Positions 2 through 28,409 of a stretch of DNA of 64,000 nucleotides are shown here, one piece after another. Position 1 is the first letter of the stretch. Each line of letters opens with the position of its first letter. The notes beneath the pieces were generated by a model. It was given only the letters and a program-made list of their open reading frames with translations, had not been told where the DNA came from and ran no database searches. The position numbers and the translations under genes were made by a program. This DNA is from a virus. The stretch lies in IMG/VR virus record IMGVR_UViG_3300009431_000003, one strand, 5' to 3'.

Positions 2-1351
2 TTGTGCAACCCGTCTTTTTAGAACGGGTAAAAAAGCTGATCTATGGGGGATAAGCCCTGACATACTCATACCTAATTCAGGCATGAACATCTCAGGACT
101 CATTCCGACTGGAGACATATCCTTACAAGGGGAGAATATCTGGTTTGTTTGAGACATACCCCATTCCCGTGCGGGCTTACCCATTTTTATGACCACAATT
201 TTCTGAAATTCTGACGGCTTTAGAGCCACACCTAACCCAGCAAGAGTACTAAGGATATTGCCAAGAGGCAACTCTGACAAAGACTCTAGTTTGGCATCTG
301 GAATGGCGGGCTCTTCGGCACCAAGAAATTGTATATTGTCTTCCGATAAGTTAGATTTAATTTCCTTGTCTATATCGCTGGTTTTTATTTCTGCACTTTG
401 TTTCACGAAGTCCGTAAAAGGAGTAGCTGTCTTTTCTCTTTTAAAAAAGTCCATGTTATCGGAAACCATACCAGCTTCCAGAGCAGCATAAGCAGACGGT
501 ACTTGGTATACCTTTGCCAGCTTTGCCAAAACTTTAGCTGTTTTGTCTGCCCCTAAAAACACAAAAGAGATATCAAAAAATCTTGGAAATAGATTGACTA
601 CATAAACAAGACGCCCATCCGGCAATGTGCGTCCAAGCTGGTTCTTTGCCCAATCACTATATTCGTCTGTAGTAATTGCCAGCCCAGGAAGTCCCACCCT
701 TCCTTGTCGCATAGCCTCAAGCCTTGCCTTAAGAGAAGCACCATAAGGTAAACCTAATAAAGAAAAATGCTCCAGGAGCATTTCTTTAGGGCATCTATAT
801 TCCCATTGTTTCCAGTTTGGGTTTGTAATGGAACAGATATCGAATGGAACCTTACAACCCATCGAAATATCTAGGGGGTCTCCCCTATCAAGACGATCAA
901 GAAGGTCTCCACCAGCAAGTTGTACTGTCTCATTTCTGTTTAAGGAGACAATTAGTTCAACTCGCTCCATTCTGGGGTTCCAAAGAGCTTTATGAACCTC
1001 TCCATATGGTTTGTCTCCCTTTTCTATCTGGTTTTTGTGGTGCCGGAAAGGGTGCCCGTAGACCTCAAAGGTCTTATATCCCCAATCTTCCTGCTCTGTC
1101 CGAGGATGTTTGAGGCCTACTCTATTAAAAAAATCTCCATTGATATTCGCTCCCCATACTTCGCTGGTACCTAAAGCAGATAAGAGCAAATACAATTTAT
1201 CTTGATCGGGTTGGAGTTTGTTCATAAATTGCAATACCCCAGGAAGCATTGGATTCGCTAACTTTGTAAGCACACGCCTACCATCATTCAAAGGTCGGAG
1301 CAAAGGCTCTCCTTTATCTGAAACAGTAGAAAATGTAAGTAGTTTATCCAT
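2..1351 (-). CDS. Putative prohead (capsid maturation) protease, HK97/herpes SH-clan type; runs off the window edge (partial)
   Basis: Not in the ORF track. I translated it by hand from ATG 1351 with no stop to position 2: MDKLLTF...GANINGDFF...HPFRHHKN...VELIV...ISMGCKVPFDICSI...FFDISFVFLGADKTAKVLAKLA...EKTAT. The His and SMG-Ser motifs fit a prohead protease, and it lies in a virion operon. Confidence 0.75.
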   Translation of the reverse strand, partial: MDKLLTFSTVSDKGEPLLRPLNDGRRVLTKLANPMLPGVLQFMNKLQPDQDKLYLLLSALGTSEVWGANINGDFFNRVGLKHPRTEQEDWGYKTFEVYGHPFRHHKNQIEKGDKPYGEVHKALWNPRMERVELIVSLNRNETVQLAGGDLLDRLDRGDPLDISMGCKVPFDICSITNPNWKQWEYRCPKEMLLEHFSLLGLPYGASLKARLEAMRQGRVGLPGLAITTDEYSDWAKNQLGRTLPDGRLVYVVNLFPRFFDISFVFLGADKTAKVLAKLAKVYQVPSAYAALEAGMVSDNMDFFKREKTATPFTDFVKQSAEIKTSDIDKEIKSNLSEDNIQFLGAEEPAIPDAKLESLSELPLGNILSTLAGLGVALKPSEFQKIVVIKMGKPAREWGMSQTNQIFSPCKDMSPVGMSPEMFMPELGMSMSGLIPHRSAFLPVLKRRVAQ

Positions 1352-1392
1352 AACTTCCCGAAATATCACACGAAATTAGTAACTATAGTCTT

Positions 1393-1962
1393 CTAACCAA
1401 GACCAATCGCTGCCTTAAGTTGCTGTAGTTTCGATGGAGGTGCTGCTCTACGAGCTTTAAGGGCTTGAACAAGCTTCTTTGCTAAGAGGGTTCCGCCCAC
1501 ACCAGCACCTACACCAAGAGCTGCTATGCCAGGCTTGGTGCTTGCACCATAAGCCCCAAGCTGACCTATATTTTGAATAGCTTGACCGCCGCGACTACCT
1601 GCAATAGCAGATGCACCGCCGGCAATTCCACTACCCAATGATTTGGCACCCCCGGCAAGACCGCTGCCAACATCTGCTAAGGAGGTATTCAGGACTTTGC
1701 TTCCCGCACCTCTTAGTCCTGCTACGCCCCTTAAAGCTACGCCAGGTGCTGCATCTATTCCTCTTGAAGCTGCATTGGGAAGTTGTCCACCACTTCTGCC
1801 AGCAGAAGCCCCACCAACAAAATGTAACTTGTTTAGGCCTTTTTTACCTGCAGCAACACCTCTGGTAAATCTGCCCGCTTCTTTTTCCATTTCCTCCATT
1901 TCAGCAAGATAAGGAAAAGGATTCTGATTAATTTCTGTAAGAGCCGCCACTTTCTCAAGCAT
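1393..1962 (-). CDS. Gly/Ala-rich basic putative virion (internal/ejection) protein
   Basis: 189 aa. N-terminal LEKVAA and MEKEAG motifs, GxxxG-rich hydrophobic C-terminal segment, co-oriented with the protease. Confidence 0.6.
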   Translation of the reverse strand: MLEKVAALTEINQNPFPYLAEMEEMEKEAGRFTRGVAAGKKGLNKLHFVGGASAGRSGGQLPNAASRGIDAAPGVALRGVAGLRGAGSKVLNTSLADVGSGLAGGAKSLGSGIAGGASAIAGSRGGQAIQNIGQLGAYGASTKPGIAALGVGAGVGGTLLAKKLVQALKARRAAPPSKLQQLKAAIGLG

Positions 1963-1989
1963 TACTGCCTCCTTTAATTTCGTTATGTA

Positions 1990-2736
1990 TTATAGTTCTC
2001 CTGAAGGGAGTGCTTTTTCCGTCCCGCGCCTAACGCTCTCGCCTATAACAGAAGGCTTAACAGCGTCTCGCTCCGCACGGATTAACTCATTTACTGTTTT
2101 AAGGTCAAATACCGGAGCACCGCTCTGCATAGTAGAACTGGCTACCGCGTTCCGTACTAATAGCCCGGTAACCAGAGGGTCCGCAGATATCTTCTTATTA
2201 TATCTTCGTATAGTCTCAAAGGCAGACCTTACTGCTTTGGCGGGATATTGCTTCTTCAGATCAGGGTTGGAGTCCAATAACTGCTGAAAATCCCCTTCCC
2301 TTGTGGCCTTCTCATGAAGTAGGCTTAGTACTTTACCGCCTACCCGTTCAACTCCCGCTCCCGCTGCCAAGCTTCCTCCAACAATCAAAGGATAAGCCAT
2401 CAGAGGGTTTGCTTTTATTGTTCCTCGAACCCCTGTGGGTCTGAATAGTCTACCTTTAACCTTTTCACCGGCGCCAGTAGCAATAGGCTTTACAAAATCC
2501 TGAAGCCCTGGAACTCGACTAATTGCATTAACTATAGAGTCCACAGCCTTAAACCGACTTAACCTCTTATTTAATCTATGGCCTTTCTCTTTTAAATCAA
2601 ATTCTCTATTCCACTCTATCTCTTCCGGGCGCCATTGCGCTGTCTTTGTGTACCAACGATGATCACATCCAAGTTTCGTCCTAGCCCTGTTTATTGCTTT
2701 GGCTAATCTTATAGTTCTGACTATCTCATTTTCCAT
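1990..2736 (-). CDS. Hypothetical virion-associated protein with one hydrophobic segment
   Basis: 248 aa ORF in the operon. YTKTAQ motif and the hydrophobic stretch LMAYPLIVGGSLAAGAGV. Confidence 0.6.
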   Translation of the reverse strand: MENEIVRTIRLAKAINRARTKLGCDHRWYTKTAQWRPEEIEWNREFDLKEKGHRLNKRLSRFKAVDSIVNAISRVPGLQDFVKPIATGAGEKVKGRLFRPTGVRGTIKANPLMAYPLIVGGSLAAGAGVERVGGKVLSLLHEKATREGDFQQLLDSNPDLKKQYPAKAVRSAFETIRRYNKKISADPLVTGLLVRNAVASSTMQSGAPVFDLKTVNELIRAERDAVKPSVIGESVRRGTEKALPSGEL

Positions 2737-3625
2737 AATCGAGCCCTATCTGCTGCATAATCTCGTTGTGCTTGTTCTCTGTAGCAGCAAGAATATCCGT
2801 CTGTACAGCCAAAGCTTCCATATAGGAAGCAGCCGCCGCCGCCGATTTCACTAAAGCGTGTTCGGGATTTGGTGTCCTAAATCGCAGAACGTGAAGACTC
2901 TCCTTCAGCTTTTTTACACTTGACCCTGTCTTCTCAATAATTTGATCGAGCATCAGTCCGCTTAGCTCCCGAGCCACTATATTATTTGGACTGGCATACT
3001 TACAAATAACGCTCAACTCTCCCAGAGAAGTAGAGCCATCAAGAAAGGCTCTTGTTGCTTCTTCTCCAAAATCTTCGGCAATATGAGCTACTTTATACTG
3101 AAGACTTGCAGTTTTAGCCTGTTCATTGCCCAAACTTTCCTTTACAGAAGAAGCTTCAAGGATTTCCTTACGCCCAGGCTCGGCAGGAAGGAGGTCACCA
3201 TTTCCCTCATGCTTGAATATCTCTTCAAGAGAGGGACTGAAGCTGGCTTTATAATCTTCTGGCGGAGTAGAATAGGCAAAGGAATCCTCTTTAAGTTTGT
3301 CTTCCCGTACAATAGGATCTAAGCGGTCTGCAATGATACCGTCCCAAAGAACCTTAGAACTTGCCGGATCAAATTGCACATTCTTGTCTTCTTCTGTTTT
3401 AAACTTTTGTGTAAAGACATCTACATTAGCCTGCTCTACAATACGATGAACCTGATCCTGATTAAGTCCCGGATTTTTTGATAAAAGGGCAGCCAGAATA
3501 TCACTGAGACTCTTTTCATTATCTTGTAGAAAAGTCATTGCCCCTTCTCGGGCAATTCCACGAAGAGTTTCAGGGGTATAAGTTTCTGTGCCAAGCGTTT
3601 CAAAGGAATTTAAGATATCCTGCAT
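2726..3625 (-). CDS. Hypothetical protein, first gene of the protease operon
   Basis: 299 aa with a GGAG RBS. KTAS, KVAH and KSAA motifs; overlaps the next gene. Confidence 0.65.
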   Translation of the reverse strand: MQDILNSFETLGTETYTPETLRGIAREGAMTFLQDNEKSLSDILAALLSKNPGLNQDQVHRIVEQANVDVFTQKFKTEEDKNVQFDPASSKVLWDGIIADRLDPIVREDKLKEDSFAYSTPPEDYKASFSPSLEEIFKHEGNGDLLPAEPGRKEILEASSVKESLGNEQAKTASLQYKVAHIAEDFGEEATRAFLDGSTSLGELSVICKYASPNNIVARELSGLMLDQIIEKTGSSVKKLKESLHVLRFRTPNPEHALVKSAAAAASYMEALAVQTDILAATENKHNEIMQQIGLDYGK

Positions 3626-3654
3626 ACTTTACTCCAAATGCTGAATATGTTCAT

Positions 3655-3684
3655 AGAGTACCTTCCTTAAAATATCTATGTCAA
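3655..3684 (-). promoter_or_regulatory. sigma70-like promoter TTGACA-N18-TACTCT for the protease operon
   Basis: Plus-strand TGTCAA at 3679-3684 and AGAGTA at 3655-3660, 30 nt upstream of ATG 3625. Confidence 0.65.
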
Positions 3685-3704
3685 GCCCTAAAACAGGACG
3701 ATCG

Positions 3705-3733
3705 TTGACAAAAATGCCCCAGGGTGGTACCAT
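3705..3733 (+). promoter_or_regulatory. sigma70-like promoter TTGACA-N17-TACCAT with extended -10 TG; probably gives a leaderless mRNA
   Basis: TTGACA at 3705-3710 and TGG-TACCAT at 3725-3733. ATG 3741 lies 7 nt downstream with no SD. Confidence 0.65.
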
Positions 3734-3740
3734 CCGGTCC

Positions 3741-4280
3741 ATGAAATGGTTAACCATACAAGAAACAATGAAACAATTAAATAAAAGTAGGGCAACAATA
3801 TATCGACTTATCAAAAGGGGCCGGTTAAAAAAGAAACGAGAGGGGAAAAAAGCCCTCATAAGCAAAAGAAGCATTACAGCTCTCATTAACCAAACCCAAG
3901 GAATACCTTCTTTTGAATTGTATCAAAGAATAAAAAAGTTAGAAGAAGAGATTGGTAATATTCAAAAAGTATTAAGTATCCCCTCAAAAAGTTCTTGGGT
4001 ACCGCAAGAGGTACCTCTATTTAAAAGAGTAATACAAGATATAGTAAATTCCAATACTTTGGGCCATAAGGTACATAGCTTTAGGGATTACATTAGAAGA
4101 CTACCTATAGAGCAAGTCGCCAGCGTTTTTATATCCACAAAGGAAGTAGATTTTTGCTACAGTGCTCTTATAAAATACTTAATAGAACAGTACGACTTAG
4201 AGGCACTCGAAGGTATTTTACAACTACGACAACGTATCGAGCTCATAAAGATACAAATAACTTCGACTAAGCCGCAATAG
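3741..4280 (+). CDS. Excisionase/MerR-superfamily HTH DNA-binding protein
   Basis: MKWLTIQETMKQLNKSRATIYRLIKRGRL is a Xis-type HTH, followed by the coiled coil ELYQRIKKLEEEI. Start moved from 3678 to 3741. Confidence 0.75.
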   Translation: MKWLTIQETMKQLNKSRATIYRLIKRGRLKKKREGKKALISKRSITALINQTQGIPSFELYQRIKKLEEEIGNIQKVLSIPSKSSWVPQEVPLFKRVIQDIVNSNTLGHKVHSFRDYIRRLPIEQVASVFISTKEVDFCYSALIKYLIEQYDLEALEGILQLRQRIELIKIQITSTKPQ

Positions 4281-6012
4281 CCTGGTTGAATATATCATCT
4301 CGTTTAAAAATTATTGTAGATCCCATGAAACAGAAAAGTAACGAATGGAAAGCATCGTCTTGTGTCCCAAGAGAGTGTTTGAATTCTGTAAGTCTTCTGA
4401 TATGATTATATTCAGCAAAGATAGCCAGGAAATCTTTAGCAAAAGGCTCAAATATTTCATATCGTGGAAAATCAAAATAGATGCCTCTTTTAATCGCCGA
4501 GAAAATATCTTGCATAATCTCTGTTCTATTAAGGAGGAATCGTTTGAGGGAACCTTCCCACTTCATTTTCTGACGTAGCTGGCCGGCATGCTGAAATTGG
4601 ATTACCCTGGTTGGGCCAAAACGGTTTAGGAGTTCTCTATTTTGATAAAAACCGGAGCCGTAATCACAGGCTATTATTTTAGGCTTCCATTGGTCTATAA
4701 TACGTATAATCTTTTCGAGCTGGATAACGGGATCAATTTCATTCCCCTCGAACCTATGTATAAAGAATACCCGGAACCTATCATTGATATAAGCTGCCAA
4801 AGTCAGCACCGTATACGAGGTATGGGTCTGCCCTGCTTGTCCCCAGTCAATACCGCAAAATATTGGCGTGGACCCGTGAGAGATGGAACTTTTCAATTTA
4901 ACCAGTTCCTCTGCCGAAAATTCATAGTCTCGACAATTATTTAAAATATCAGTTTTGGTAAGGGGCTTGGATCCCGATTCACAACTCAGGCCTAATACTT
5001 CATTATAGAATCGAGCTTGTCCATATCTCTTCTGAAAATCGAGGACTTCTGACCAACCATCCGCAATAACCCAAGGAACCATAATCTGAGGGATACGAAA
5101 GCCTTCAAATGGATGGGTAACCAAAGGAGTATTCATACGGACCCAATGTGCTGCTGAATGATTAGGGTTAATTATATTTCCACAGTTGGTACAAATAGGG
5201 CCACGCAATCCGATACTTTTTGGGCCGAGAATATTCCAATGAAATTTATGTATTGTACTGGCCTTACAGGTACAAGGAACCACCCACTCATTCTGGGTTG
5301 AGAATTTTTCCCAGTATTGCTCGATGGTATTATCAACGGTAAGAGGAGTCCCTGCATAGAGATACAATTTATAAGGAGAATGAGATAGGGCCTGTTCGAT
5401 GACTGGAATATTATCGACCAGAATATTCTGTATCTCGTCAATCATCAAATAATCCGCGGGAATACCCCGGACGCGATCAGCATTAAGGAAGGCATACCTG
5501 AGACGTACCTTCGTACCGTTTATCATTTCTTTTTCAAGGACACTGTCCTGCCTATACATAAAGGGAAACCACGCCTGCAGAATCTCTGACTGTCGAATAA
5601 CCTGGGTTAATCGTTCCCTGGAAAACTCTTTTGTTTGGAGCATGGAAGGAGAGACGTACAAAGGCGCTGAGTTTGGAACTAAAGCCCCAAAAGATAGTAT
5701 CTTGTTACCGAGGGTTGTGGACTTCTCAACCTGCCGGCCACAACGAAGAAGTACATGCCTGGACGGAGTATCATAAATATCTTTAAGGTACCTTCGTCCT
5801 TCAAAAGAAAAGGGATCTAATGTGTTGGTAAGCTTATTAGGCATCCTTACAGCAAACTCAGTAAATTGTGATGGCAGAACAGGCTGGCGCCTGTTTCTCT
5901 GTTCTGCTGTCCTACGAGTTTCAAGATAAGACACTTCCTTTGGGAGATTTTCGCCGCTTTTTTTAAGTATTTTCCGTCGAGAAGCTCTGTACCTTATTGC
6001 ATCAACCGGCAT
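4267..6012 (-). CDS. terL: Terminase large subunit (gpA-like)
   Basis: Walker A-like CGRQVEKST, Walker B YLMIDE, coupling motif GTP, and RNase H-like nuclease motifs GIDWG and DDAFHS. Confidence 0.88.
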   Translation of the reverse strand: MPVDAIRYRASRRKILKKSGENLPKEVSYLETRRTAEQRNRRQPVLPSQFTEFAVRMPNKLTNTLDPFSFEGRRYLKDIYDTPSRHVLLRCGRQVEKSTTLGNKILSFGALVPNSAPLYVSPSMLQTKEFSRERLTQVIRQSEILQAWFPFMYRQDSVLEKEMINGTKVRLRYAFLNADRVRGIPADYLMIDEIQNILVDNIPVIEQALSHSPYKLYLYAGTPLTVDNTIEQYWEKFSTQNEWVVPCTCKASTIHKFHWNILGPKSIGLRGPICTNCGNIINPNHSAAHWVRMNTPLVTHPFEGFRIPQIMVPWVIADGWSEVLDFQKRYGQARFYNEVLGLSCESGSKPLTKTDILNNCRDYEFSAEELVKLKSSISHGSTPIFCGIDWGQAGQTHTSYTVLTLAAYINDRFRVFFIHRFEGNEIDPVIQLEKIIRIIDQWKPKIIACDYGSGFYQNRELLNRFGPTRVIQFQHAGQLRQKMKWEGSLKRFLLNRTEIMQDIFSAIKRGIYFDFPRYEIFEPFAKDFLAIFAEYNHIRRLTEFKHSLGTQDDAFHSLLFCFMGSTIIFKRDDIFNQAIAA

Positions 6013-6080
6013 AATTATCCTAAAGAAGTTGTTATCTTTAAAGATTATAGGTAAAAAAGAAATAAAGCAAGAGGGAGATT

Positions 6081-6443
6081 ATGACTAACGAGGAACGGAG
6101 ATTATGGTCATTTGGAAATGCAATAATTAGTGCTATAACATATTGGTGTGGATCATCCATCCAAAAGAAGAAGTATCGACAAACGGGCGGGCCTTATAAG
6201 GGTATTCTTTCTCTTCTGTTTGGTGAAGGAGTTAAATCTCCCGCTCTTACTTATTCGACGGTACAGAGGCTATTAAATATTCTACTACGGGAGCATAAAA
6301 CAATTACATTAGAGCATTTAAAAGTTGAAGCTAACTGGATACAGCTTACTTTAATTGTAGCCCCTGAAAAGGAAAAGGTGATTCTGGATACGATAACAGA
6401 AGAAGAATTAAACGAAATAAGAAAAAGGAGTAAAGATGGATAA
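6081..6443 (+). CDS. Hypothetical protein
   Basis: 120 aa with a GGGAG RBS; overlaps the next ORF. Confidence 0.55.
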   Translation: MTNEERRLWSFGNAIISAITYWCGSSIQKKKYRQTGGPYKGILSLLFGEGVKSPALTYSTVQRLLNILLREHKTITLEHLKVEANWIQLTLIVAPEKEKVILDTITEEELNEIRKRSKDG

Positions 6444-7319: not shown

Positions 7320-7867
7320 TGAGGGATAAACCAGCAGCGGCAGGACCAAAACCGAAACAGAGCCTGGGTGATATTAATGAAGGATTCAAGCAAATAGGTA
7401 AAGAGTGGTTGAGTAAGCAGGGCTATAGTACAAAACCAATCAGATTAAAGATACTACACAAAAAATGCTTTAGTGCTATGTATGGCACCGTAGCTCAGGT
7501 TGTTGGGGCATCCCCTTCAGAGGATCGCGGCCCGCATGCTATCTTTCACTTTTTTGCTCCCAGAGCAATGATGGAAGGACAAGTCAGAGAAGCTCGCCGC
7601 AAAAGCTATATTCTCCATAATCGCTTTGGGCAGATATTTGCAGATAGTTGGAAAGAAGTAATTGGGGACCGAGAATATACATTTGAACTGCTTCAGGAAG
7701 AAGTAGTGGGCATGCAAATGCAAGGCCCAGAAGGGCAAGGATTTGATAGTTGGTGTCTACGGGCTTTTGGTAGGCCGTTGTCTGACGAAAACACTAAAAT
7801 ACTTCAGGAGCTTCTGAATCATTTTGATGTAAATCTCGTACCCTTTCTTGACTTGATGAGTCGGTGA
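7319..7867 (+). CDS. Hypothetical protein
   Basis: The in-frame ATG at 7319 overlaps the rnhB stop (TAATG); the ORF track starts it at 7301. Confidence 0.55.
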   Translation: MRDKPAAAGPKPKQSLGDINEGFKQIGKEWLSKQGYSTKPIRLKILHKKCFSAMYGTVAQVVGASPSEDRGPHAIFHFFAPRAMMEGQVREARRKSYILHNRFGQIFADSWKEVIGDREYTFELLQEEVVGMQMQGPEGQGFDSWCLRAFGRPLSDENTKILQELLNHFDVNLVPFLDLMSR

Positions 7868-8246
7868 TATTAAACACCGCCCCAGGGCCTACACCGTATC
7901 TGGCACAGAAACCTTCAGGAACTTCGAGAGCAAACCTTGATGCTCCTGAAAAGGTTTCTGTGGTATAAGCCGGCATGGTAATACAAGAATCAACTACCCA
8001 AGCTTCATCAAGGAAAATTGCATCTAGGCCAAAAGGCACATCTTTCATCCATAAATGAATATGCTTGACGGAAGGGACAGGGACGAATAAAATACCTTCC
8101 TCATCTTCTGGTTCGTCCCTGCCACTAAATCCCTCCATCAAATCTTCGGGGGTGTGGGCCACATCGATTCGTAGTTGTACACTGTGACTCACACCCTCCA
8201 CACCTACATTGGTCTTGAGTATTTCCGCTGGAAGGCCAATAATCAT
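7794..8246 (-). CDS. DUF192 family protein
   Basis: DVAHTPEDLMEG...GILF...LWMKDVPFGLDAIFLD...FALEV...GVGPG pattern. Confidence 0.8.
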   Translation of the reverse strand: MIIGLPAEILKTNVGVEGVSHSVQLRIDVAHTPEDLMEGFSGRDEPEDEEGILFVPVPSVKHIHLWMKDVPFGLDAIFLDEAWVVDSCITMPAYTTETFSGASRFALEVPEGFCARYGVGPGAVFNITDSSSQERVRDLHQNDSEAPEVF

Positions 8247-8788
8247 TGTATCCCTTTGATTCTTGGGATTATATTACCTCTACCAGTCGCTTCAAGTTGC
8301 CTATTTAGATATGGAGTAAGTCGCCTAATAGCGTGACGCGACAATCTCTGAGACTCCCCAAAAGAAAACACATTACGCCCAGATGTAGAGGGCACGTTAT
8401 ATCGGATATTGTTTATAGCGGAGTTTAATGATTTGGCTTCACCTGATGCTGCGCGAAGCTGCTTGAAATTACTCACTGCAGCTTTAGCCCCAGGACCTGT
8501 ATAATTTCTCAGCATATTGTGTTCACGTAAAAGGACAGAAGGAGATAAATGCCCATAAAAGCCACTCTTCATACCAAGCCTGCTATCCAGACTATTTACT
8601 ACTTTTTTTACTGCGCTTTTTGATCCCTTCATCGCCGCTCTCTCAGCAAATTCATGTCCCAAAGTTAGCCCAAGACCAGCTCTATCACTGCTCGCAGAGG
8701 GTGCTAGGCGATTTGGGGACAACCTATCCATCGTATTTTTTGCGAGCTTAGTTGGGTTAACATATACCCCTTTGTTTTTTACAGGCAT
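8243..8788 (-). CDS. Basic hypothetical protein (possible virion/DNA-binding)
   Basis: 181 aa, Arg/Lys-rich, PTKLAK near the N-terminus; ATGA overlap with the DUF192 gene. Confidence 0.5.
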   Translation of the reverse strand: MPVKNKGVYVNPTKLAKNTMDRLSPNRLAPSASSDRAGLGLTLGHEFAERAAMKGSKSAVKKVVNSLDSRLGMKSGFYGHLSPSVLLREHNMLRNYTGPGAKAAVSNFKQLRAASGEAKSLNSAINNIRYNVPSTSGRNVFSFGESQRLSRHAIRRLTPYLNRQLEATGRGNIIPRIKGIQ

Positions 8789-10030: not shown

Positions 10031-11995
10031 TTATACAGCCAATGTCTGTTTTAATTTTCGTAGGCCAGTAATAACAGCATCAAGGTATTTCATACCCCTG
10101 GCAACCGCAGTTTCAGGAATATGAGAACCGCCCATGCGGACAAAGAATAAAAGCTCAGCCAGTTTGTGCAGCGCAGTCTCTAAAGAAGGCAGATACTCTA
10201 CAAAGGTATCTACAGTATCTGGTTTTAGGAAACCAAGAGACAATATTGAATCTACTGTAGTACCATCCTCCAACACTGCGGCCACTTTAAATAACTCACT
10301 TAGTGCCGGAGGAGAAGGAACAAGACTAGCGTGCTTTTTAATAAAGGAAGACATTGCCTCTACTCTTTTATTATAAGGAGTAATTGGGAGAAATTCTCCA
10401 CGAACAACAACCCCTTTGGCACCTACATTAGCCATCGCCATCTTTTCCGTTGCCTGCTCTTGAGACATACCCAAGGATCTCGCTGCAAAAATTGCATCTG
10501 CAACAGAAACATTAAGCCGGTCACTTTCTGGAATAAACTCGGCAGCGTTTCCTGTAAGAGAATAGGTCCCATCAGTATGCGCAGCTATTTTGATTATCTG
10601 CGGATATGCCTCCTCTAAGATTATCTCTCCCTCAAGAGGGCTGATTGTTTTTCCTGCAAGTTTGGCAAATCGGAAAGTAGAGGGTAGATAGAATTTATCT
10701 TTCTTATACTCTGCTACTTTTTTAATGCCCTCTGAGATATGTATCTCGATAGGGGCTCCCATCTCAGTAATAGCTACCAAATGAGCTTTATCGCTCGCTT
10801 CTTTAATCCTTACTCGGCTTTGTATTGAAACAGGACCAAAGGCTTCCATAGTCTGTGGGTTATAAAATAACCCTTCTGTATTCTGAGCTGGAGCGTCATC
10901 GGGCTGTTTAATATTTGGATTTGGAAAACCTGTAATATCTTCTCTAATAACGTGAGCATGTTTCCCAAGAAAAAACTCTCCATTTCGCTGCTGACCGCTA
11001 AAACTCTTCACGTCCGTAAAAACCGCTCCATGATATTTTCCTTCTGAAGTAAGAACAGTAAACCCTCCAGCCTTCGCTGTTCCTAAAGAGGCGGCAACTT
11101 TTTCCAAAGATTCCGGAACCTCCTCCACAAAAGTATTGGGACCATAAATCATTGTACCTTGCTGATCTATATCATCCAGAGCATCCTTGCCAAAAATTGC
11201 TTCAGCTTGTTGAGAGCTGAGAATAGATTCTGTTGGTGCGAAAGCTGAAGTATCTGCTAGCTTTACTCTATACCCTTTATCTATATTTTGTATAAGCAAT
11301 ATATTTGGATTTATAGGAAAGGAAGGTTCGGCGTCTCGGGTCTTAGCTGTTTTCATTAAATTAAATACGGCCATTCCTACATCACTTAGCTCCTTGCTGC
11401 CCGCAGTCTTGTACATGATGGCATCAGCTAGTCTAGTATCGAGAGAAGCTACAAAATGTTTCGCAGTCTCCTTTGACACTCTACCGGATAAAGCATTTAG
11501 CACTACTGCACTACTTAACTTATCCATTTGGAGCCCAAGGCCTACCTGCCTTTCTTTCCCGCCACTTAGTGTCTCGTCTTCTCCATCCTTATCGCCGATA
11601 TACATATCCATAGGAGAGGCAATTTCAAGGTATTGGGCGACTCTATCCTCAGTTACCGGCATAAAGTGTTCGCCCACCACCATAATATCCAAAGAAGACA
11701 GCAGCCGGTCATTAACTACGATTGGTACTTTAATTTCCGGGTGGTTCTCTCCTTCTACCAACGACTCATCATTGGTGTTTGGTCGGATCAGAAAAAACCC
11801 TAAAGCAGTATTCTGCGCCGGGTTAATTTTTTCGAACATCACATCCACAATATACTTTCCCATAAAGGGATGTTGCCGATGTAGCTCCTCAAGCACTTGT
11901 TGTGGCCATGTGGAAGAATCATCCGGCAGCGGAGTTCCTACTACCTGTGCCTTTTTAAATAATGGTTCGCTGTCAAGAAAAATTTCGGTAACCAT
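10031..11995 (-). CDS. Putative virion (head/internal) protein rich in K-x-A motifs
   Basis: 654 aa with about 14 K-x-A motifs by hand count (e.g. LEKVAA, MYKTAG, LFKVAA). Confidence 0.65.
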   Translation of the reverse strand: MVTEIFLDSEPLFKKAQVVGTPLPDDSSTWPQQVLEELHRQHPFMGKYIVDVMFEKINPAQNTALGFFLIRPNTNDESLVEGENHPEIKVPIVVNDRLLSSLDIMVVGEHFMPVTEDRVAQYLEIASPMDMYIGDKDGEDETLSGGKERQVGLGLQMDKLSSAVVLNALSGRVSKETAKHFVASLDTRLADAIMYKTAGSKELSDVGMAVFNLMKTAKTRDAEPSFPINPNILLIQNIDKGYRVKLADTSAFAPTESILSSQQAEAIFGKDALDDIDQQGTMIYGPNTFVEEVPESLEKVAASLGTAKAGGFTVLTSEGKYHGAVFTDVKSFSGQQRNGEFFLGKHAHVIREDITGFPNPNIKQPDDAPAQNTEGLFYNPQTMEAFGPVSIQSRVRIKEASDKAHLVAITEMGAPIEIHISEGIKKVAEYKKDKFYLPSTFRFAKLAGKTISPLEGEIILEEAYPQIIKIAAHTDGTYSLTGNAAEFIPESDRLNVSVADAIFAARSLGMSQEQATEKMAMANVGAKGVVVRGEFLPITPYNKRVEAMSSFIKKHASLVPSPPALSELFKVAAVLEDGTTVDSILSLGFLKPDTVDTFVEYLPSLETALHKLAELLFFVRMGGSHIPETAVARGMKYLDAVITGLRKLKQTLAV

Positions 11996-11998: not shown

Positions 11999-13039
11999 TT
12001 ACCCCTTTACGTTTATAAGGCCTATAGGAGGCCCTTGAATTTCAGTTACCTTATAAATAGTTGGTGTATTTGGCGCTGTATGGACATGTGACTGAATCGC
12101 AAAATTAAGTTGACTGTTAATAAAATCGACCAGAAACTTCATATCTTCATTTGCCGCAGCATTACCCGTAGAACCAGGAGCGGTAATTATACTATTAGCT
12201 TCAACATCTTTACAGGAAATATTCTTACATTGAAGATTATTTTCGATAGTAAGGTCCCCGCCCGGGCTGGCAGAGCCTATACTTACATCACCTACCAAAA
12301 TAATATTCCCCTTTAACATTATATCTGCTCCTTCAAGAATAATTTGAGGAGCTGATATTTTCTGCTCAACGGAGGCTTCTATTTCCGACAACCCATCCAT
12401 ACCAAACTTAAAAGAAGAGGCGCCTCCCGCATCACCGGAAATACCGTCCGGCCCTCCGACATTCATACTGGAACCACCTGTTGGAGTCCCTGCACCCATA
12501 TTGCCAAATATACCAATACCGCCTCCATCTTCACCAGAAGTAATTGCTCCTCCAAGAGAAGCAAAGTTCATCGTACGAGAAAAAGTACTCTCTTTTCCTT
12601 TACGATCAACATGCTTCATACCCAAACCTCCGGACCCAGACTGCATGGAACCATCAGAGTTAGCCTGCATCCCGCCGCCGGCGGAAGACTTTATCGCTAT
12701 ATCTCCAGGCTGAAGGTTTGGTCTCTTTCCTTGTGCGCCAGCGCCTCCGCCTGGGGCGCCTAATCCACCGTCTAAGATGGCTTGAGCCCCACCAGCACCT
12801 CCAGTCTTCATTGTAATATTCGCTCCCACAGTAGGAAGGAAATGAACGCCAGCTCCCTCATTATCGGCCATCCCTCCTATAGGTACACCAAACCAGACCC
12901 TAGAAGATCCATTTTCGGCAATATCAGCGGTATAATCATCATTTACCGCAATAAGCGTCCCAAATATATTTTGCGCGGCTCCATGCCTTATAGTTCCTGG
13001 GCCTGGTTGTGTTTTCTTACCCATTTTTGTTGTAGCCAT
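11999..13039 (-). CDS. Baseplate central spike / gpV-gp138-like puncturing protein
   Basis: OB-fold-like N-terminus (FLPTVGA), Gly-rich beta-helix-like repeats, and C-terminal HxH metal site (SHVHT). Confidence 0.6.
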   Translation of the reverse strand: MATTKMGKKTQPGPGTIRHGAAQNIFGTLIAVNDDYTADIAENGSSRVWFGVPIGGMADNEGAGVHFLPTVGANITMKTGGAGGAQAILDGGLGAPGGGAGAQGKRPNLQPGDIAIKSSAGGGMQANSDGSMQSGSGGLGMKHVDRKGKESTFSRTMNFASLGGAITSGEDGGGIGIFGNMGAGTPTGGSSMNVGGPDGISGDAGGASSFKFGMDGLSEIEASVEQKISAPQIILEGADIMLKGNIILVGDVSIGSASPGGDLTIENNLQCKNISCKDVEANSIITAPGSTGNAAANEDMKFLVDFINSQLNFAIQSHVHTAPNTPTIYKVTEIQGPPIGLINVKG

Positions 13040-20781: not shown

Positions 20782-20818
20782 ACGATTTCACCCATAAGGA
20801 ATATGAGGAGGAATATAA

Positions 20819-21013: not shown

Positions 21014-21086
21014 CGAAATAGTATTCTTGAATAAAAAGCACATACCCGCACAACCAGGAGACGGGTACTGGCCAACATTTACATGA
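20934..21086 (+). CDS. 50-aa putative membrane peptide
   Basis: Below the track cutoff. MGSMFLIGFLAGLISGVVRRLTRL..., AAAGGA RBS, ATGA overlap with 21083. Confidence 0.5.
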   Translation: MGSMFLIGFLAGLISGVVRRLTRLMTDEIVFLNKKHIPAQPGDGYWPTFT

Positions 21087-21593: not shown

Positions 21594-21621
21594 TCTCTTT
21601 CCAGACAACTTAGGCGAAACT

Positions 21622-23025: not shown

Positions 23026-25100
23026 ATAACCGCTCTTTCCGGGGCTCGTCTAGGAGGTTTAACTACCGGAAGGTCCATCATACCAGGGTCCGCATGGGAC
23101 CCTTGGTTTTGTTGGAGTTGTTGCTGCACCATGGCATACAAATTAGGGGTCTCAGAACTCATATTTTTTAGTACCGTCATTTTTTGAGCGGGATCCATCT
23201 TTTGGAGATTCTTTACATAGGTTGAAGCAATGCCATGGATGCTAGCCCCTGCTTGCTGATTAAGTGCAATACGTTGAGAAGTTTGTGGAGGAGACGCTAA
23301 AGTTGTTGGCGTGGCGGCAATAACTGCTTCCGTAGGCATTCTGGTAGCTTGTTCAGCTTCTCGTATAGCTTGGGCCGCTCTTAAATTTCCTATTGCTTCA
23401 TTTAGCGCAATTCTAGTTTTTCTCCTGGAACTCTCTTCAACCTCTTTAGGAGTTGGTACTTTTGCCGGACGAGATCTATATTGTGGTTTGTGTAATGGGA
23501 ATACTGTCTTTTGAGGAGGGCCGGCCATCATAGCTTGTTGTTGTACCGCTTGAGCCATCCCCATATATTTGGCCTGGACTATTTGAGCCTCTCCCGCTAT
23601 AGCAGCCTGGGCAATTTGCTGTCTTTTATTACTTTCGATTTGTCGCTTAAGCTCTACCAACTTACGCTGCTCTTCCTCAAATACATCCTCGCCAATATCT
23701 TCCAGCAAAGTTTGGTCAGACAATTTACCTGCCTGATTGTATTGGAACTTAAGTGAGGATCTTTGAAGGTCGTCTCCCATTTTAAAGTCTTCACGTCCTA
23801 TATCAATTTGCGCCCAACCCATATGTGCCGATACGCGCGAGCGAACAAATCGGACTAAGCCGTCTAATTCTTCCAAGTACCCAATCATCTCATTTTCTAT
23901 CTGACGAAGTGAAACATTGGACCCTGAATACGAAATTCCTCCAAAAATAAATTCCTGTGGGACCCCCATCCCCGCTAAAACATGTTCAGAAGTAATTCGT
24001 ATGTCTTGGTGAAGCATTAAGGCTCGACCAGTGCCTCCAATCGTCTCATTTCCTACAGGTAGAGGCATGACTGGAATATAGTTATGATCGCGCCTCCAGT
24101 GCTTAATCTCTTCCTCGATCTGCTGTTTCCATTGCTGCAAGTTAACAGTGGTAAATGGGTCACTGGTAGTAGACCCTGGCTGAGGGAAAAGGACCCGAAG
24201 AGGCACAACATATTCTGTTGCAATAGCCTCATTACCCTTTCGAAGTACCTGCAGATAAAATAATTGTTTGAGTACTGGAAGAATCATTGGCATTCCCCAC
24301 CCTTCCCAATCATCCATCATGGTTGGGTGAGAAATAGAAGCACGCTTCATATGAAAAACAGCATTAGGATTCAGTCGAACTTTCTTACGCTTCTTTACTG
24401 CTTCCAAATATATATTTGGAAGTGCTGAAACAAGGCTTTTTTTACCCATAGAAATATCACTTCGGGTAGCCTTATCTAGTTCATAAATTAGTTCTTTATG
24501 ACCAGTCAGTTGGTTTTGCCTAATATTTATATTTTCAGGACTCCACCGAACTAATCGAATATCCTGGTAGCTACGATAATAGTAATCTTTAGCAAAAGCA
24601 GTTCCTTCTGTATTACAAGAGGGGCATTTGAGTCTAAATTTATGTCCTACATAGCGCCACTTATCCTGCATTCTTTTATCATCCGCTCTTGCTTGATTTC
24701 CGCAATGTGAACAGGACAACCATTTATGAAAAGGAAAAGATACGGAGATGAAGCAGTTACCATAAGTATTTCGATCAAGACCGGCTTCAATCTGAAAAGT
24801 ACGAATATCCAATACATCTTCAAAGAGAGTTTTCCATTGATTTCGTAACTCTTGGGACTCTGCATTGTAGATTAATTTACGGATAGGGTATGCCGCCATT
24901 TTATGTACAACAGCATTAATCAAAGGGTCCATTAAAAAGTATTTACGGCAATATTCTAGTAGTTCTTTAATAGAAGAAGGTAAGAAAGTACTGGCAATAT
25001 CAAAATAAGGAGAAGGATAATCCATGGCGCCCGATGCTCTATTGGTGTATCGGGTTGTATTTCCCGGTCCGTATTTTGGCGATAATGAAAAACCTTCCAC
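23022..25100 (-). CDS. Putative portal protein with a zinc-ribbon insertion and Gln/Pro-rich tail
   Basis: Portal-like pattern (DPLINAVV, YGNCFI, IRLVRWSP, WGMPMILPVL, GVPQEFIFG), CxxC pair at aa 130-162, morphogenesis context. Confidence 0.65.
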   Translation of the reverse strand: MEGFSLSPKYGPGNTTRYTNRASGAMDYPSPYFDIASTFLPSSIKELLEYCRKYFLMDPLINAVVHKMAAYPIRKLIYNAESQELRNQWKTLFEDVLDIRTFQIEAGLDRNTYGNCFISVSFPFHKWLSCSHCGNQARADDKRMQDKWRYVGHKFRLKCPSCNTEGTAFAKDYYYRSYQDIRLVRWSPENINIRQNQLTGHKELIYELDKATRSDISMGKKSLVSALPNIYLEAVKKRKKVRLNPNAVFHMKRASISHPTMMDDWEGWGMPMILPVLKQLFYLQVLRKGNEAIATEYVVPLRVLFPQPGSTTSDPFTTVNLQQWKQQIEEEIKHWRRDHNYIPVMPLPVGNETIGGTGRALMLHQDIRITSEHVLAGMGVPQEFIFGGISYSGSNVSLRQIENEMIGYLEELDGLVRFVRSRVSAHMGWAQIDIGREDFKMGDDLQRSSLKFQYNQAGKLSDQTLLEDIGEDVFEEEQRKLVELKRQIESNKRQQIAQAAIAGEAQIVQAKYMGMAQAVQQQAMMAGPPQKTVFPLHKPQYRSRPAKVPTPKEVEESSRRKTRIALNEAIGNLRAAQAIREAEQATRMPTEAVIAATPTTLASPPQTSQRIALNQQAGASIHGIASTYVKNLQKMDPAQKMTVLKNMSSETPNLYAMVQQQLQQNQGSHADPGMMDLPVVKPPRRAPERAVI

Positions 25101-25108
25101 TTACACTC

Positions 25109-25972
25109 CTACCTTTTTGGACTTAACAATACATCCGGCCCTAAAAAGGCTCCCATATTTAAAAGCATCCCCGCATTATGAGTAAGGGCGCCTCCACCAG
25201 CCATGGCCAAATTTCTTGCAACTGCTCGTGCTCTTGTATCACCTTCTTTTGGTTTCCGTACCGCGGCAAGTCCTGCACCACCCAGAGCAGTACCATAAAA
25301 CAATTTACTTCCAAAGAGATTTGGTACATATTGAGTCAAACCCCCTCTTCCCATATAACCACGAACGATAGCCTGTTCGTGTAGCTGCCTCGCTATAGCC
25401 TTTGCTTTACTACCAGGAGTCCTAGTCCCTTTTAAGCCATGACGCATAATATTTGTAAAACCCTTAACCGGTTTTCTCCCAAGACCGCTATAAAGCACAT
25501 TTGGATTAACAATACCAGCTTTAGGCTGAATTGTAGGTAAAAACTTACCTTTAGCCTTCTGGAGAACATTGACATCTGCTGGCCTAAAACTCCTATATCT
25601 CTTTGCAATATCTGCTGACCGCTTTGCCGCAATAGCTCCAGACCTACGGCCCCAACGGAAATATTGAGTTCCCGCAAGCCCACCAAGCAAACCACCAACC
25701 ACAGCGCCCTGTAAAGCTCTGTCCGCCAAATAAGGATCACCTTCTTGTGCCGCAGACCTAGCTTGTTGGATTCCTCCAGTTACAGCACCTAAACTGCCAA
25801 AAGCCAACGAGGGATAAAGAGTTTTACTTTTTGAAACCCCAGGCGCAGTATATTTAGTAACGGCCTGACGACCCCACCCAAGCTGTTGTTGATTCGCGTT
25901 TAATGCTCTGGCAGAATCACGCACCAACCGCCCAATCCGAGCAAGCTGTGCATTTTTCTCTCGCGTAATCAT
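25109..25972 (-). CDS. Basic glycine-zipper protein, putative virion/ejection protein
   Basis: GxxxG segments (GAVVGGLLGGLAG), very Arg/Lys-rich, N-terminal EKNAQ. Confidence 0.55.
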   Translation of the reverse strand: MITREKNAQLARIGRLVRDSARALNANQQQLGWGRQAVTKYTAPGVSKSKTLYPSLAFGSLGAVTGGIQQARSAAQEGDPYLADRALQGAVVGGLLGGLAGTQYFRWGRRSGAIAAKRSADIAKRYRSFRPADVNVLQKAKGKFLPTIQPKAGIVNPNVLYSGLGRKPVKGFTNIMRHGLKGTRTPGSKAKAIARQLHEQAIVRGYMGRGGLTQYVPNLFGSKLFYGTALGGAGLAAVRKPKEGDTRARAVARNLAMAGGGALTHNAGMLLNMGAFLGPDVLLSPKR

Positions 25973-26898
25973 ATTCCTATTGCCTTTCGCTGCTCCTCCA
26001 ATTGTGCTCTCCGAAAGTTCATATAATCCCTGGCAATAAGCAGCTTAAATCCTGGAATATAATCCGGATATCTTTCATGATCAGCATATTTCTGGATATG
26101 CTCTATCGGTACGTCTTTGTACGATTCCCAAAATTTTTCGATAATTGCAGGGTCCCTACGGAAAAAAGTTCTGATTTTTTGCCCAGCAGCTTTAGGAGCT
26201 GCCGGGTCCGCTTTATCATTAAAAGGGTATCCATCAGAAAACCGACCGATGCAGCTATCGCATAAAATAGGAGTTTTATCAATAGTTGCAGTATAGCCAC
26301 AAACTAAACATTCATACATTGGCTCTGCCAACCAAATCTCAGCAAAGGATAAAAGATCAGGTAAGTAATTGATTCCATCTTCAATCGCTGCTGCAGCAAC
26401 AAATTTAGCTATCTCATCCGAAAAAGTAGATTCTCTTATTAATTTGGAGATATCAACAGCGACAAAAAGTTGCTCGATTCCAGGGATAACCAACTGCTCA
26501 AAGTCAGGGCAGTTATTGTTAAGTATCTGACATAACGGAGCAAATACATTCCAATCCGTCCAAAACATTTGAGAGGAGTGTAGGGCTCTAATCATTTGCA
26601 GCTTGGCCCAGACTAATTGACTAATAGAATCGATCTTAAAATCAGAAAGAATACCTTCTCGAAGAGCTTCCGGGTCCCAAGCCAACCAACCAACCTCGTA
26701 CTGCTTGGCCATTACCAGCTCTAATAAAATTGGGTGAGTATCGTGGTGTTGAAACAAGTTACTAACAGATAAAGGCGTATCGGAAACGTCCTCTTTTATT
26801 TGTTCCTGAGGCTTATTAGTCTCCGGCTGTGCCAAGAGGAAATCAAAAAGCAGCTTCTCACTGTCAGATGTTTGAAGATTAGGTCGATTACTCGGCAT
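25969..26898 (-). CDS. Hypothetical protein with a CxxC...CxxC insert
   Basis: 309 aa with CLVC and CDSC; coupled to both neighbours. Confidence 0.6.
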   Translation of the reverse strand: MPSNRPNLQTSDSEKLLFDFLLAQPETNKPQEQIKEDVSDTPLSVSNLFQHHDTHPILLELVMAKQYEVGWLAWDPEALREGILSDFKIDSISQLVWAKLQMIRALHSSQMFWTDWNVFAPLCQILNNNCPDFEQLVIPGIEQLFVAVDISKLIRESTFSDEIAKFVAAAAIEDGINYLPDLLSFAEIWLAEPMYECLVCGYTATIDKTPILCDSCIGRFSDGYPFNDKADPAAPKAAGQKIRTFFRRDPAIIEKFWESYKDVPIEHIQKYADHERYPDYIPGFKLLIARDYMNFRRAQLEEQRKAIGI

Positions 26899-28409
26899 TA
26901 TTTACCCATCATACCATCAAGTATCTCTCTATGATCATTAGGTAAGCTTTCGTAAATTGCTACGGGATCCTGCTTCATCTGCTCCGCAGAGCCTTCACCA
27001 AACAATTCATCTACTTCAGCGGCATTTACATCATCCTGCAAAAATTCTTCTAATTCCTCTCCAGGGAGTATCTCTATTTCCTGAGCAATTTTCTCCATAT
27101 TGCCAAAAGAAGACCAACAAGGATCAGGGATATAAGTGTCCCAGGCCCTGTTTAGTCCAGTAGTCTCATCAAATAAAGTCAGCAAAGATGCGATCTTCTC
27201 GTGCTGTAGTCCATTGGCTGCAGCCGTTTTTATATTGTACAGTACCTGCAATTGTTTGTCGTCAGTAACGTATGGCTCTCTGACGCAAATATTATCAATT
27301 ACCATGGGGTCAATATCCGCTGATCCATATTTCGCAATAGATACAGGAACTTTCTGTTGGTGCTGCTGTAAAGCAGATGCCAGTTTTATGGCCATTTCTC
27401 TTCGCTGTAAGGGATGCAACTTCCGCCCATGCTCAAGAAAATATCTTTCTGCCTGCTTTACTTGAGTATAACCATTCATCGGGTAACTAGCTTTTTTCTC
27501 TTGCTCTTTTTTGCGGCTTGCGCTGGTTTGAGCAATTGCACGAAATTTGCCCTTTGGCCCTTTGGCGAATAAAGTAAAGGGCTTTTTATGTCCCCGCTCA
27601 CGAAGAACAACGGCAGGGTCTCCTCGCTCAGCCGCACTTATTTGTGCAGCGTTCCAAGAACTTCTTTCTGTAGCTCTTCCACGCCCATGCCCAAAGAGCC
27701 CCCCAACCGCTCCTGCGCCGGTTATTCCAGCAAAAGCCAGTGCTTTTCTGGTGGCAGAACTTTCTTTTTTACGTACAGATATTTGAGCTGTAGGGTGATA
27801 CTTTCCTTGAGGGCCTCGTGCAGCCGCTAAAAATGGGGCCTTCCGACCTTTATTACGTACGAGGATAAGAGGATCTCCTGCCCTTGCCATATCTCCAGCA
27901 ACTTGATTCCAGGCATTTCTCTCACCTTTTCGACCAAATTCACTTCCTGCAAAACCAGCCCCAGCACCTACAGTCCCCATGCCCAACAACGCAGCTACCA
28001 ATTGCTTACCTTTATCTACTGGTAGTTTTGGGGCGGCTTTCTTTGTTTGGCCGTTTAAAGCCATATTAACTTCGTCAACAACCCCATATGCCTGAGCAAA
28101 CTTCTGTAACCCTTTAATTGTCTGTGCTTGATCCTCATTAGGCATTTGTTTTCCCGTTGTCGAAAAGTACAAAGCTTGTAAGACAACACTACCTGGATCA
28201 ACACAAGCAAACTTTTTTAAAATCCCTTCCGGTCCATACCCGACATAGGCAAACCTATCCGTCGGCATAAGTTGAGTAACTTGCTTATTTTTGATATCCG
28301 CAGTCTTGATACTGTCCGGAATATCTTCCGTGTCCGGAAATATTGCTCGGAGTATTTCTCCTGTGGTATCATCTTGAAAATCTAATAATGCTTCAGACAA
28401 CTTAACCAT
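26898..28409 (-). CDS. Putative virion polyprotein with K-x-A motifs and a duplicated 85-aa cassette
   Basis: AGGAG RBS, about 10 K-x-A motifs, internal repeat at aa ~136-216 and ~221-301. Confidence 0.65.
   Translation of the reverse strand: MVKLSEALLDFQDDTTGEILRAIFPDTEDIPDSIKTADIKNKQVTQLMPTDRFAYVGYGPEGILKKFACVDPGSVVLQALYFSTTGKQMPNEDQAQTIKGLQKFAQAYGVVDEVNMALNGQTKKAAPKLPVDKGKQLVAALLGMGTVGAGAGFAGSEFGRKGERNAWNQVAGDMARAGDPLILVRNKGRKAPFLAAARGPQGKYHPTAQISVRKKESSATRKALAFAGITGAGAVGGLFGHGRGRATERSSWNAAQISAAERGDPAVVLRERGHKKPFTLFAKGPKGKFRAIAQTSASRKKEQEKKASYPMNGYTQVKQAERYFLEHGRKLHPLQRREMAIKLASALQQHQQKVPVSIAKYGSADIDPMVIDNICVREPYVTDDKQLQVLYNIKTAAANGLQHEKIASLLTLFDETTGLNRAWDTYIPDPCWSSFGNMEKIAQEIEILPGEELEEFLQDDVNAAEVDELFGEGSAEQMKQDPVAIYESLPNDHREILDGMMGK

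Follow-up and report, generated by a model that had tools for sequence, protein, structure and literature searches.

Does a short peptide motif, Lys-x-Ala (K-x-A, where x is any residue), direct the maturation of the head proteins of a large and very divergent phage? This question is raised by a stretch of 64,000 nucleotides from the viral record IMGVR_UViG_3300009431_000003, called the window below, in which K-x-A recurs in minus-strand genes between positions 2 and 28,409, including the gene of a 615-residue polyprotein that is likely a head maturation protease. An original prediction, made from the letters of the window, held that this protease recognizes K-x-A and processes a set of virion polyproteins and cargo proteins. 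The window covers part of the genome of a tailed phage, very divergent and ~183 kb in size; a contig of 182,587 bases carries an identical copy of one of its proteins, and most window proteins have no match in Pfam or PHROG. This phage belongs to a large, mostly uncultured clade, which takes in Salmonella phage Arash and, at a greater distance, the Vibrio phages D69/D148/D181 and Bacillus phage G. From sequence comparisons across this clade, it appears quite likely that K-x-A is the recognition motif of its head maturation protease.

Lys-x-Ala counts in the window, in related loci and in T4

Observed K-x-A numbers in the window were compared with 1,000 composition-preserving shuffles of each protein. 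The strongest excess is found in a 654-residue protein (15 observed, 4.1 expected, p<=0.001), followed by a 503-residue protein (11 and 4.8, p=0.006), the protease open reading frame (ORF) being marginal (5 and 2.1, p=0.057). The full motif [ELM]K[TVEIL]A[ASG] is present twice in ORF 1393-1962, for 0.0 expected (p=0.003). The remaining thirteen minus-strand proteins of positions 2-28409 total 40 K-x-A against 39.9 expected (hand-summed). No enrichment is seen in the 2561-residue RNA polymerase beta'-like protein (18 and 17.7), the excess in the 646-residue presumed DNA polymerase is not significant (6 and 3.5), and the terminase (0 and 1.7) and the portal protein (2 and 3.3) stay below expectation. 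All the instances on which the original prediction relied could be found again (LTKLAN, LAKLAK and EKTAT in the protease; MLEKVAA and MEKEAG; KTAQ; KTAS, KVAH and KSAA; EKNAQ), and its counts of about 14, 10 and 6 in the 654-residue protein, the 503-residue protein and the polymerase come out as 15, 11 and 6. Its broader statement of a recurrence across many minus-strand genes holds for the instances themselves, but enrichment above shuffles is limited to two or three proteins of the window. The KFSS sequence of the gene at 45271 was dropped from the list of copies because K-x-S, with an observed-to-expected ratio of 0.97, is no part of the motif.

When the window alone was scanned without bias, ~83,000 pair tests yielded a single hit (p=2.6e-5), and this hit does not reach significance after correction; the decisive evidence had thus to come from relatives. 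This result, together with the choice of the motif after inspection, is what could be invoked in favour of an artefact, due to composition, to local Lys/Ala-rich segments, to shared ancestry, to a DNA-level signal or to the post hoc choice itself. Queries with single proteins retrieved no related loci in viral or metagenome collections, and one alignment (A1) was too divergent for use. Related loci were obtained from alignment A2 of the protease family (51 sequences, ~34% identity). ORFs were called and clustered in 80 related viral loci, and 400 a-x-b residue pairs were ranked in each family.

Seven unrelated head-module families are enriched in K-x-A, 2.46-fold when pooled. The pair ranks first of 400 in family c1 (3.63-fold, with 8 conserved columns), in c0 (3.21-fold), in c9, the family of the 654-residue protein (3.10-fold), and in c5 (1.99-fold); it ranks second of 400 in the protease family (2.26-fold), third in c3 (2.11-fold) and fourth in c16 (1.78-fold). 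Three of these families, c3, c5 and c0, are encoded where a scaffold is usually found, with the protease on one side and the major capsid protein on the other. Ten pooled control families contain 627 K-x-A for 643 expected (0.97-fold). The terminase stands at 0.61-fold (rank 352 of 400), and c6, c8, c11, c13-c15, c17 and c18 are not enriched (0.58-1.29-fold). The major capsid protein reaches 1.30-fold overall (rank 91 of 400). The enrichment proposed in the original prediction is thus borne out in head-module families, once shuffles, homologues and control families are considered.

Near-miss pairs are not enriched, the observed-to-expected ratios being 0.89 for R-x-A, 0.79 for K-x-G, 0.97 for K-x-S, 0.78 for KA, 0.82 for A-x-K and 1.24 for K-x-x-A, and no enrichment is observed for E-x-A or any pair ending in Glu. 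Since K-x-A alone is enriched, local composition is no explanation, and the requirement for both Lys and Ala looks strict. The codons at K-x-A sites are diverse, which disfavours a DNA-level signal. The effect of ancestry was corrected by counting each conserved alignment column only once. K-x-A still makes up 34 of the 456 conserved pair-columns in candidate substrate families, versus 3 of 703 in controls, and it is the commonest conserved pair in five of the eight candidate substrate families. Composition, a DNA-level motif and shared ancestry were rejected as explanations on the basis of these pair controls, codon diversity and column counts, respectively. As for the post hoc choice, the pattern is found again in independent families and genomes which had no part in the definition of the motif, and it persists in relatives at ~25-35% protein identity. 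An artefact of any of these kinds appears scarcely credible. Eight unrelated families yield a single extended logo, [MFL]-[EV]-K-[TVIL]-A-[SA]-[AVI], in which Pro is depleted throughout and Ser after Ala is enriched ~4-fold.

The same blind pair test was applied to phage T4, the record of which notes gp22, gp23 and gp24 as processed by gp21. For the T4 scaffold gp22, LxE and IxE come out at ranks 1 and 2. The combined [LI]xE motif is found 16 times in gp22 (5.6 expected), 7 times in gp21 (2.5), 5 times in gp68 (2.0) and 8 times in gp23 (4.0); the tail and replication proteins tested show no such excess, and K-x-A is not enriched in T4. The pattern observed in the clade, which matches that of T4 in shape and size, is thus as expected of a head protease motif. 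It can also be recognized in cultured members of the clade. In Arash, K-x-A ranks first in gp220 (10 observed, 3.0 expected) and gp225 (7 and 1.8) and second in gp223 (8 and 3.0), and the protease gp222 has 7 for 3.2 expected, its K30 site being kept. In phage G, K-x-A ranks second both in the protease gp19 (8 and 2.4), with sites on both sides of the domain, and in gp21 (7 and 2.8).

The likely protease, its candidate substrates and their neighbours

The first ORF of the window (2-1369, minus strand) encodes a protein starting at Met7, at window position 1351, and the part lying in the window is 100% identical to the full-length 615-residue protein P0151, the numbering of which is used here. 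Its cultured homologues are found in Vibrio phages D69/D148/D181, in Arash (gp222) and in phage G (gp19, labelled head maturation protease in PMC12484599), and 439 relatives are present in IMG/VR. Neither PHROG nor Pfam gives a hit with the window protein. PHROG 18299, annotated as head maturation protease, matches 24 of the 51 family members (best E=8.9e-9) over residues ~70-195, which is the His-Ser region. Alignment A2 reveals the invariant His104-His105 and Ser163-Met164-Gly165 listed in Table 1, as well as invariant acidic residues (E132, D171 and D260 in the 51 sequences); from this conservation, H104/H105 and S163 are presumably catalytic. In the ESM Atlas, the named clusters closest to the protease by features are Peptidase_S77 and S78, with scores of 0.89-0.90, to be taken as a lead only. 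The gene order TerL, c1, c6, protease, c3, c5, c0, major capsid protein is found in the three loci listed gene by gene, where the major capsid protein of related loci is recognized by PHROG 2522 (E=1e-13). The head-module families occur in most of the 80 related loci according to the cluster table, and the same order is observed in Arash and phage G. The PHROG match, the invariant His and Ser and the gene order together make it likely that the 615-residue protein is a head maturation protease. To the left of the window, one would probably find the gene of the major capsid protein together with the main scaffold-position genes.

In 120 homologues of the protease, 1,115 K-x-A are observed for 494.5 expected, and they cluster at the N-terminus and in the stretch that directly follows the protease domain. 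The best kept of these sites are listed in Table 1. The family consensus across the K270/K277 pair, derived from alignment A2, reads GADKTAKVMAKLA. Further conserved columns are found at K317/323 (~88%) and at K522 (85%). The original prediction had noticed that the motif flanks the protease domain in the window; the conservation of these columns in the 120 homologues makes this flanking a property of the family.

Five protease homologues (P0242, P0256, P0257, P0266 and P0269) bear an inserted inorganic pyrophosphatase domain (PF18823). K-x-A-N-D-P stands directly at the start of the insert in four of them, and just inside its first residues in the fifth. Another three to four K-x-A sites are found directly after the insert; inside it, no K-x-A is present in three of the five cases. 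In other protease polyproteins, PHROG detects endolysin, DarB-like, kinase or minor head protein families. The inserts and these matches suggest that enzyme cargo is fused to the protease in such relatives.

The placement of K-x-A along the chain also differs between families. It is found within the first 45 residues in 84-92% of the members of c1, the protease family, c3, c5, c6, the capsid protein, c12 and c16, and in 60% of the 654-residue family, compared with only 0-23% in the terminase, c8, c10, c11, c13, c14, c15, c17 and c18. For c6, the value is 84% for 31% expected. The major capsid protein has two conserved sites. The first one, GKEKIAEYG at about residue 24, is conserved in 97%, and in gp226, the capsid protein of Arash, LVKEAGA is found near residue 27; the second is at about residue 299. 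Judging from their position and conservation, the N-terminal segments ending in K-x-A would be propeptides.

In the 654-residue protein, none of 1,600 gapped pairs scores above K-x-A. The extended form [LIFMV]-x-K-x-A is found 12 times for 1.3 expected, Leu, Ile, Phe or Met being found two residues before Lys at 12 of the 15 sites. An exhaustive HMMER search retrieved 1,034 homologues; a word-index search retrieved none, nor did tblastn against cultured phages. Arash gp218 is a weak homologue (E=5e-5). Among the 150 best homologues, which share ~25-30% identity with the query, 133 have K-x-A as their most enriched a-x-b pair, and the 150 sequences together contain 2,091 K-x-A for 606 expected. 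Sites at residues 14/15, 245, 518 and 570 are kept in 83-97% of the family. The other sites shift in position, the number per protein staying high. The alignment-based AlphaFold model has a predicted local distance difference test (pLDDT) score of 86.7; the single-sequence model (pLDDT 32) is unusable. Comparison of the model with BFVD gave nothing convincing apart from one uncharacterized protein of an uncultured phage, VIA-wide matched only the C-terminal helices (Z<8), and the ESM Atlas gave nothing. The possibility that this protein is the portal was rejected, because it is the 692-residue protein that matches the phage G portal.

The 503-residue protein has only two known homologues, which have 15 and 13 K-x-A for 3.9 and 4.2 expected, and tblastn against cultured phages gave no hit. 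Its residues ~135-305 form a tandem duplication of ~85 residues per copy, as seen by eye, each copy comprising a Gly/Ala-rich hydrophobic stretch followed by ...ERxxWN...GDPxxxxRxxGxKxPF....

Table 1. Positions of the protease, its conserved sites, candidate substrates and context genes in the window.
Feature	Position	Strand	Remarks
Likely head maturation protease polyprotein, residues 1-450 of 615	2..1351	-	C-terminal part beyond the window edge
N-terminal K30-L-A	1256..1264	-	K-x-A at this column in 97% of 120 homologues; kept in Arash gp222
Invariant His104-His105, candidate catalytic His	1037..1042	-	Alignment A2
Invariant Ser163 of DISMGC, candidate catalytic Ser	863..865	-	S163, M164 and G165 invariant in A2
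K270-T-A and K277-L-A pair, candidate release site	515..544	-	Directly after the protease domain; each in 84% of 120 homologues
K307-T-A, in the linker after the protease domain	425..433	-	Kept in 84% of homologues
189-residue Gly/Ala-rich protein	1393..1962	-	Two N-terminal full motifs, MLEKVAA and MEKEAG
248-residue head-module protein, family c6	1990..2736	-	Homologue of Arash gp221; N-terminal K31-T-A at 2638-2646
299-residue protein, family c1	2726..3625	-	Homologue of Arash gp220; multi-site candidate substrate
Large terminase	4267..6012	-	PHROG 675, E=1e-60; internal negative control, no substrate
181-residue protein	8243..8788	-	N-terminal K14-L-A; candidate only; K-x-A 3, 1.2 expected
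654-residue head-module protein, family c9	10031..11995	-	15 K-x-A sites
346-residue protein, family c17 of related loci (E=4e-6)	11999-13039	-	K-x-A 0, 1.6 expected
RNA polymerase beta'-like protein, 2561 residues	13039-20724	-	Homologous to Arash gp216
Portal protein, 692 residues	23022..25100	-	phmmer with phage G gp14 portal, E=1e-19; context gene
287-residue protein	25109..25972	-	EKNAQ motif at residue 6; candidate only; K-x-A 1, 2.6 expected, no enrichment
503-residue protein	26898..28409	-	11 K-x-A sites and internal duplication
DNA polymerase, 646 residues	37079-39019		Label from the original prediction
Zn_peptidase_2 (PF04298) match	45271-46137	-	E=8e-9; contains the KFSS of the original prediction

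Some neighbours of these genes can be mentioned for context. Arash gp216 is an RNA polymerase beta' subunit, which is abundant in Arash virions. A DUF192 protein (PF02643, E=7e-16) is encoded amid the head genes at 7794-8246 (minus strand), and a Tubulin/FtsZ-family GTPase (PF00091, E=4e-11) amid large minus-strand genes at 53072-54175 (minus strand). A 331-residue protein encoded at 44033-45028 (plus strand) has a run of nine Asn near its N-terminus, with NN and NxN strongly over-represented.

Proposed cleavage by the head protease, or another use of the motif

If K-x-A is a cleavage signal, the 615-residue polyprotein would comprise an N-terminal propeptide, a serine protease domain (His-His, Ser-Met-Gly), a linker and a C-terminal domain. 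The sequence read by the protease would be [Met/Phe/Leu]-[Glu/Val]-Lys-[Thr/Val/Ile/Leu]-Ala-[Ser/Ala]. Lys would occupy P3, Ala P1 and Ser P1', the cut falling after Ala. This position is favoured because known proteases of this kind read P3-x-P1 motifs, such as Leu/Ile-x-Glu in T4 gp21 and Ala-x-Glu followed by Ser in phiKZ/SPN3US, the SPN3US protease gp245 prefers Ser at P1' and assemblin cuts after Ala. The choice of the bond is thus made by analogy, and the cut may fall after Lys instead of Ala. Three outcomes would be expected, depending on the number and position of the sites. A single site ~15-35 residues from the N-terminus would lead to the removal of a short propeptide, as would be the case for the protease, the major capsid protein and a number of minor head proteins. 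Where sites are numerous, as in the scaffold-position, 654-residue and 503-residue proteins, a breakdown into small pieces would follow. Clusters of sites at domain borders would free the protease from its C-terminal domain and, in relatives, the inserted enzyme domains. The original idea of a Lys-x-Ala-recognizing head protease that would act on several virion proteins, polyproteins and cargo is in line with all the comparative tests. These tests establish the motif, how specific and conserved it is and how it is spread over families, whereas its cleavage, the role of this protease and the bond cut are inferred.

Several observations weigh against this proposal. For none of the phages in the clade is a cleavage product, a neo-N-terminus or an enzyme activity known. 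Searches of Pfam (S77 and S78 included) and of the PDB gave no sequence match for the protease family, and the hhalign comparison with T4 gp21 is not significant (probability 0.14); this non-significant alignment sets the DISMGC stretch on GVSSR of gp21. The second capsid K-x-A, near residue 299, is probably within the folded core; a K-x-A can thus be conserved and need not be cut. In phage G, the capsid protein lacks K-x-A altogether, for 1.6 expected; the PDB entry 6wkk, which carries its full-length sequence, is uninformative on processing. The window copy of c1 is short and has lost most of the conserved family sites, with 4 sites remaining for 2.1 expected. In the model of the 654-residue protein, which displays no recognizable fold (no convincing PDB match by Foldseek), about 10 of the 15 K-x-A, mapped by hand, are inside confident helices or strands and not in linkers. 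Such positions, if the model is right, would be awkward for the cleavage of the folded protein. Finally, Arash gp218 and gp220-gp226 are listed in virions at 85-100% 'coverage'. This virion table appears unreliable either way, because it includes 100% coverage from 2 peptides and 116 'virion' proteins; the proteome table and its supplement hold no peptide-level data, and tryptic data would mask a cut after Lys.

Some of these points could as well be read in terms of an uncleaved motif, which would dock or target proteins to the capsid interior or to the protease, or would be the target of a Lys modification or cross-link during head assembly. A strict Lys (not Arg) and a strict Ala (not Gly or Ser) would suit a modification or binding site equally, many sites lie in predicted helices and strands of a well-folded 654-residue protein, and the Arash homologues are reported in mature virions with high coverage. 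Such a role appears nevertheless unlikely when the distribution of the sites is considered. They are placed like the cleavage sites of T4, of phiKZ-like phages and of herpesviruses, at N-termini, after the protease domain, around inserts and in bulk in scaffold-position proteins. The size of the enrichment is about that of the proven T4 motif. Pro is depleted near the sites and Ser is favoured after Ala, as it is at P1' in SPN3US. No modifying enzyme has been identified in the head module.

The motif could also be cleaved by another enzyme, either the Zn-metallopeptidase-like protein of the window (the Zn_peptidase_2 match in Table 1) or a host protease. This is most improbable, given that K-x-A accompanies the head protease family in Arash, in phage G and in the 80 viral contigs. 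Moreover, its best-conserved copies flank the domain in the protease protein itself, which is typical of self-processing.

Recognition of K-x-A, as a P3-x-P1 motif, by a head maturation protease presumably of the assemblin type is thus the reading that we retain. It would probably represent a new cleavage specificity among head proteases of a known type; our literature search found no report of a Lys-x-Ala prohead protease motif, its coverage being incomplete and this absence therefore unproven. A more elaborate proposal, which is conceivable but falls somewhat short of being probable, is that the clade protease cuts after Ala in Lys-x-Ala-Ser, combining a herpesvirus-like bond preference with T4-style processing of multiple substrates, and that the motif also serves as a modular linker for loading and releasing enzyme cargo in the head (pyrophosphatase and, by PHROG, endolysin-, kinase- and DarB-like enzymes). 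If this is true, sequences alone could reveal, for hundreds of uncultured phages of ~100-200 kb, both the processed head proteome and the cargo.

A defined specificity is known for few phage head proteases, namely those of T4, of phiKZ-like phages and of a handful of others. A motif derived from sequence would flag head-internal, processed proteins among the unannotated ones of the clade, and would predict the mature protein termini for cryo-electron microscopy and proteomics. Arash, phage G and the Vibrio D69-like phages provide three cultured entry points. In terms of method, blind testing for enriched pairs, a simple procedure which T4 served to validate, is able to recover a protease motif with genomes as the only source.

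Comparison with known head proteases

T4 gp21 (MEROPS S77) cuts after Glu in Leu/Ile-x-Glu motifs of gp23, gp24, gp22, gp67, gp68, internal proteins and gp21 itself. As proposed here from the sequences, a single head protease would similarly act on a motif of the P3-x-P1 type. In both cases the motif is enriched in the scaffold and the protease, ~3-fold in T4 (gp22, gp21) and 1.8-3.6-fold here, and short N-terminal capsid propeptides and the wholesale degradation of core proteins are predicted here, as in T4. The motifs themselves are different, Lys-x-Ala in the clade in contrast to Leu/Ile-x-Glu in T4, with no Glu at P1. No significant sequence or profile similarity to gp21 is detected, and the clade protein is a 615-residue polyprotein compared with 212 residues for gp21.

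The protease-scaffold fusions lambda C/Nu3 and P2 gpO and the HK97 gp4 protease (Peptidase_S78) have their gene upstream of the scaffold and major capsid genes, as is the case here. In these systems, a C-terminal extension probably tethers the protease inside the prohead, to which the C-terminal part of the clade protease can be likened. Unlike these proteases, the clade family has no Pfam S78 or S49 match. To our knowledge, no short multi-copy consensus motif has been described for the lambda, P2 and HK97 systems.

The proteases of phiKZ (gp175) and SPN3US (gp245) recognize a Ser/Ala/Gly-x-Glu motif, process many head proteins and cut themselves. SPN3US gp245 prefers Ser at P1', its long propeptides hold several copies of the cut motif, and self-cutting is observed (PMC10052503). 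Another likeness to phiKZ-type giant phages is the packaging of a multisubunit RNA polymerase in Arash virions (PMC10585845). In contrast to phiKZ and SPN3US, P1 would be Ala (or Lys) here and not Glu, the protease families are unrelated in sequence, and the processing in the clade is predicted from sequence.

The herpesvirus protein pUL26 is a protease-scaffold fusion, which is cut after Ala at YLQA-T and VQA-S (PMC4498786), its release and maturation sites being of the form x-x-Ala followed by Ser/Thr. The likely clade protease shares with this assemblin an N-terminal protease fused to a C-terminal assembly domain. Its K270, K277 and K307 sites, right after the protease domain, and K522, ~90 residues from the C-terminus, recall the release and maturation sites of assemblin, respectively. 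The differences concern P3, which would be Lys here compared with Val/Leu, the much larger number of sites and substrates here, and the catalytic residues, only His and Ser being identified here with no His-Ser-His triad established. The succession of Ala and then Ser is common to both, and the motif would offer in this respect a testable link between phages and herpesviruses in protease specificity.

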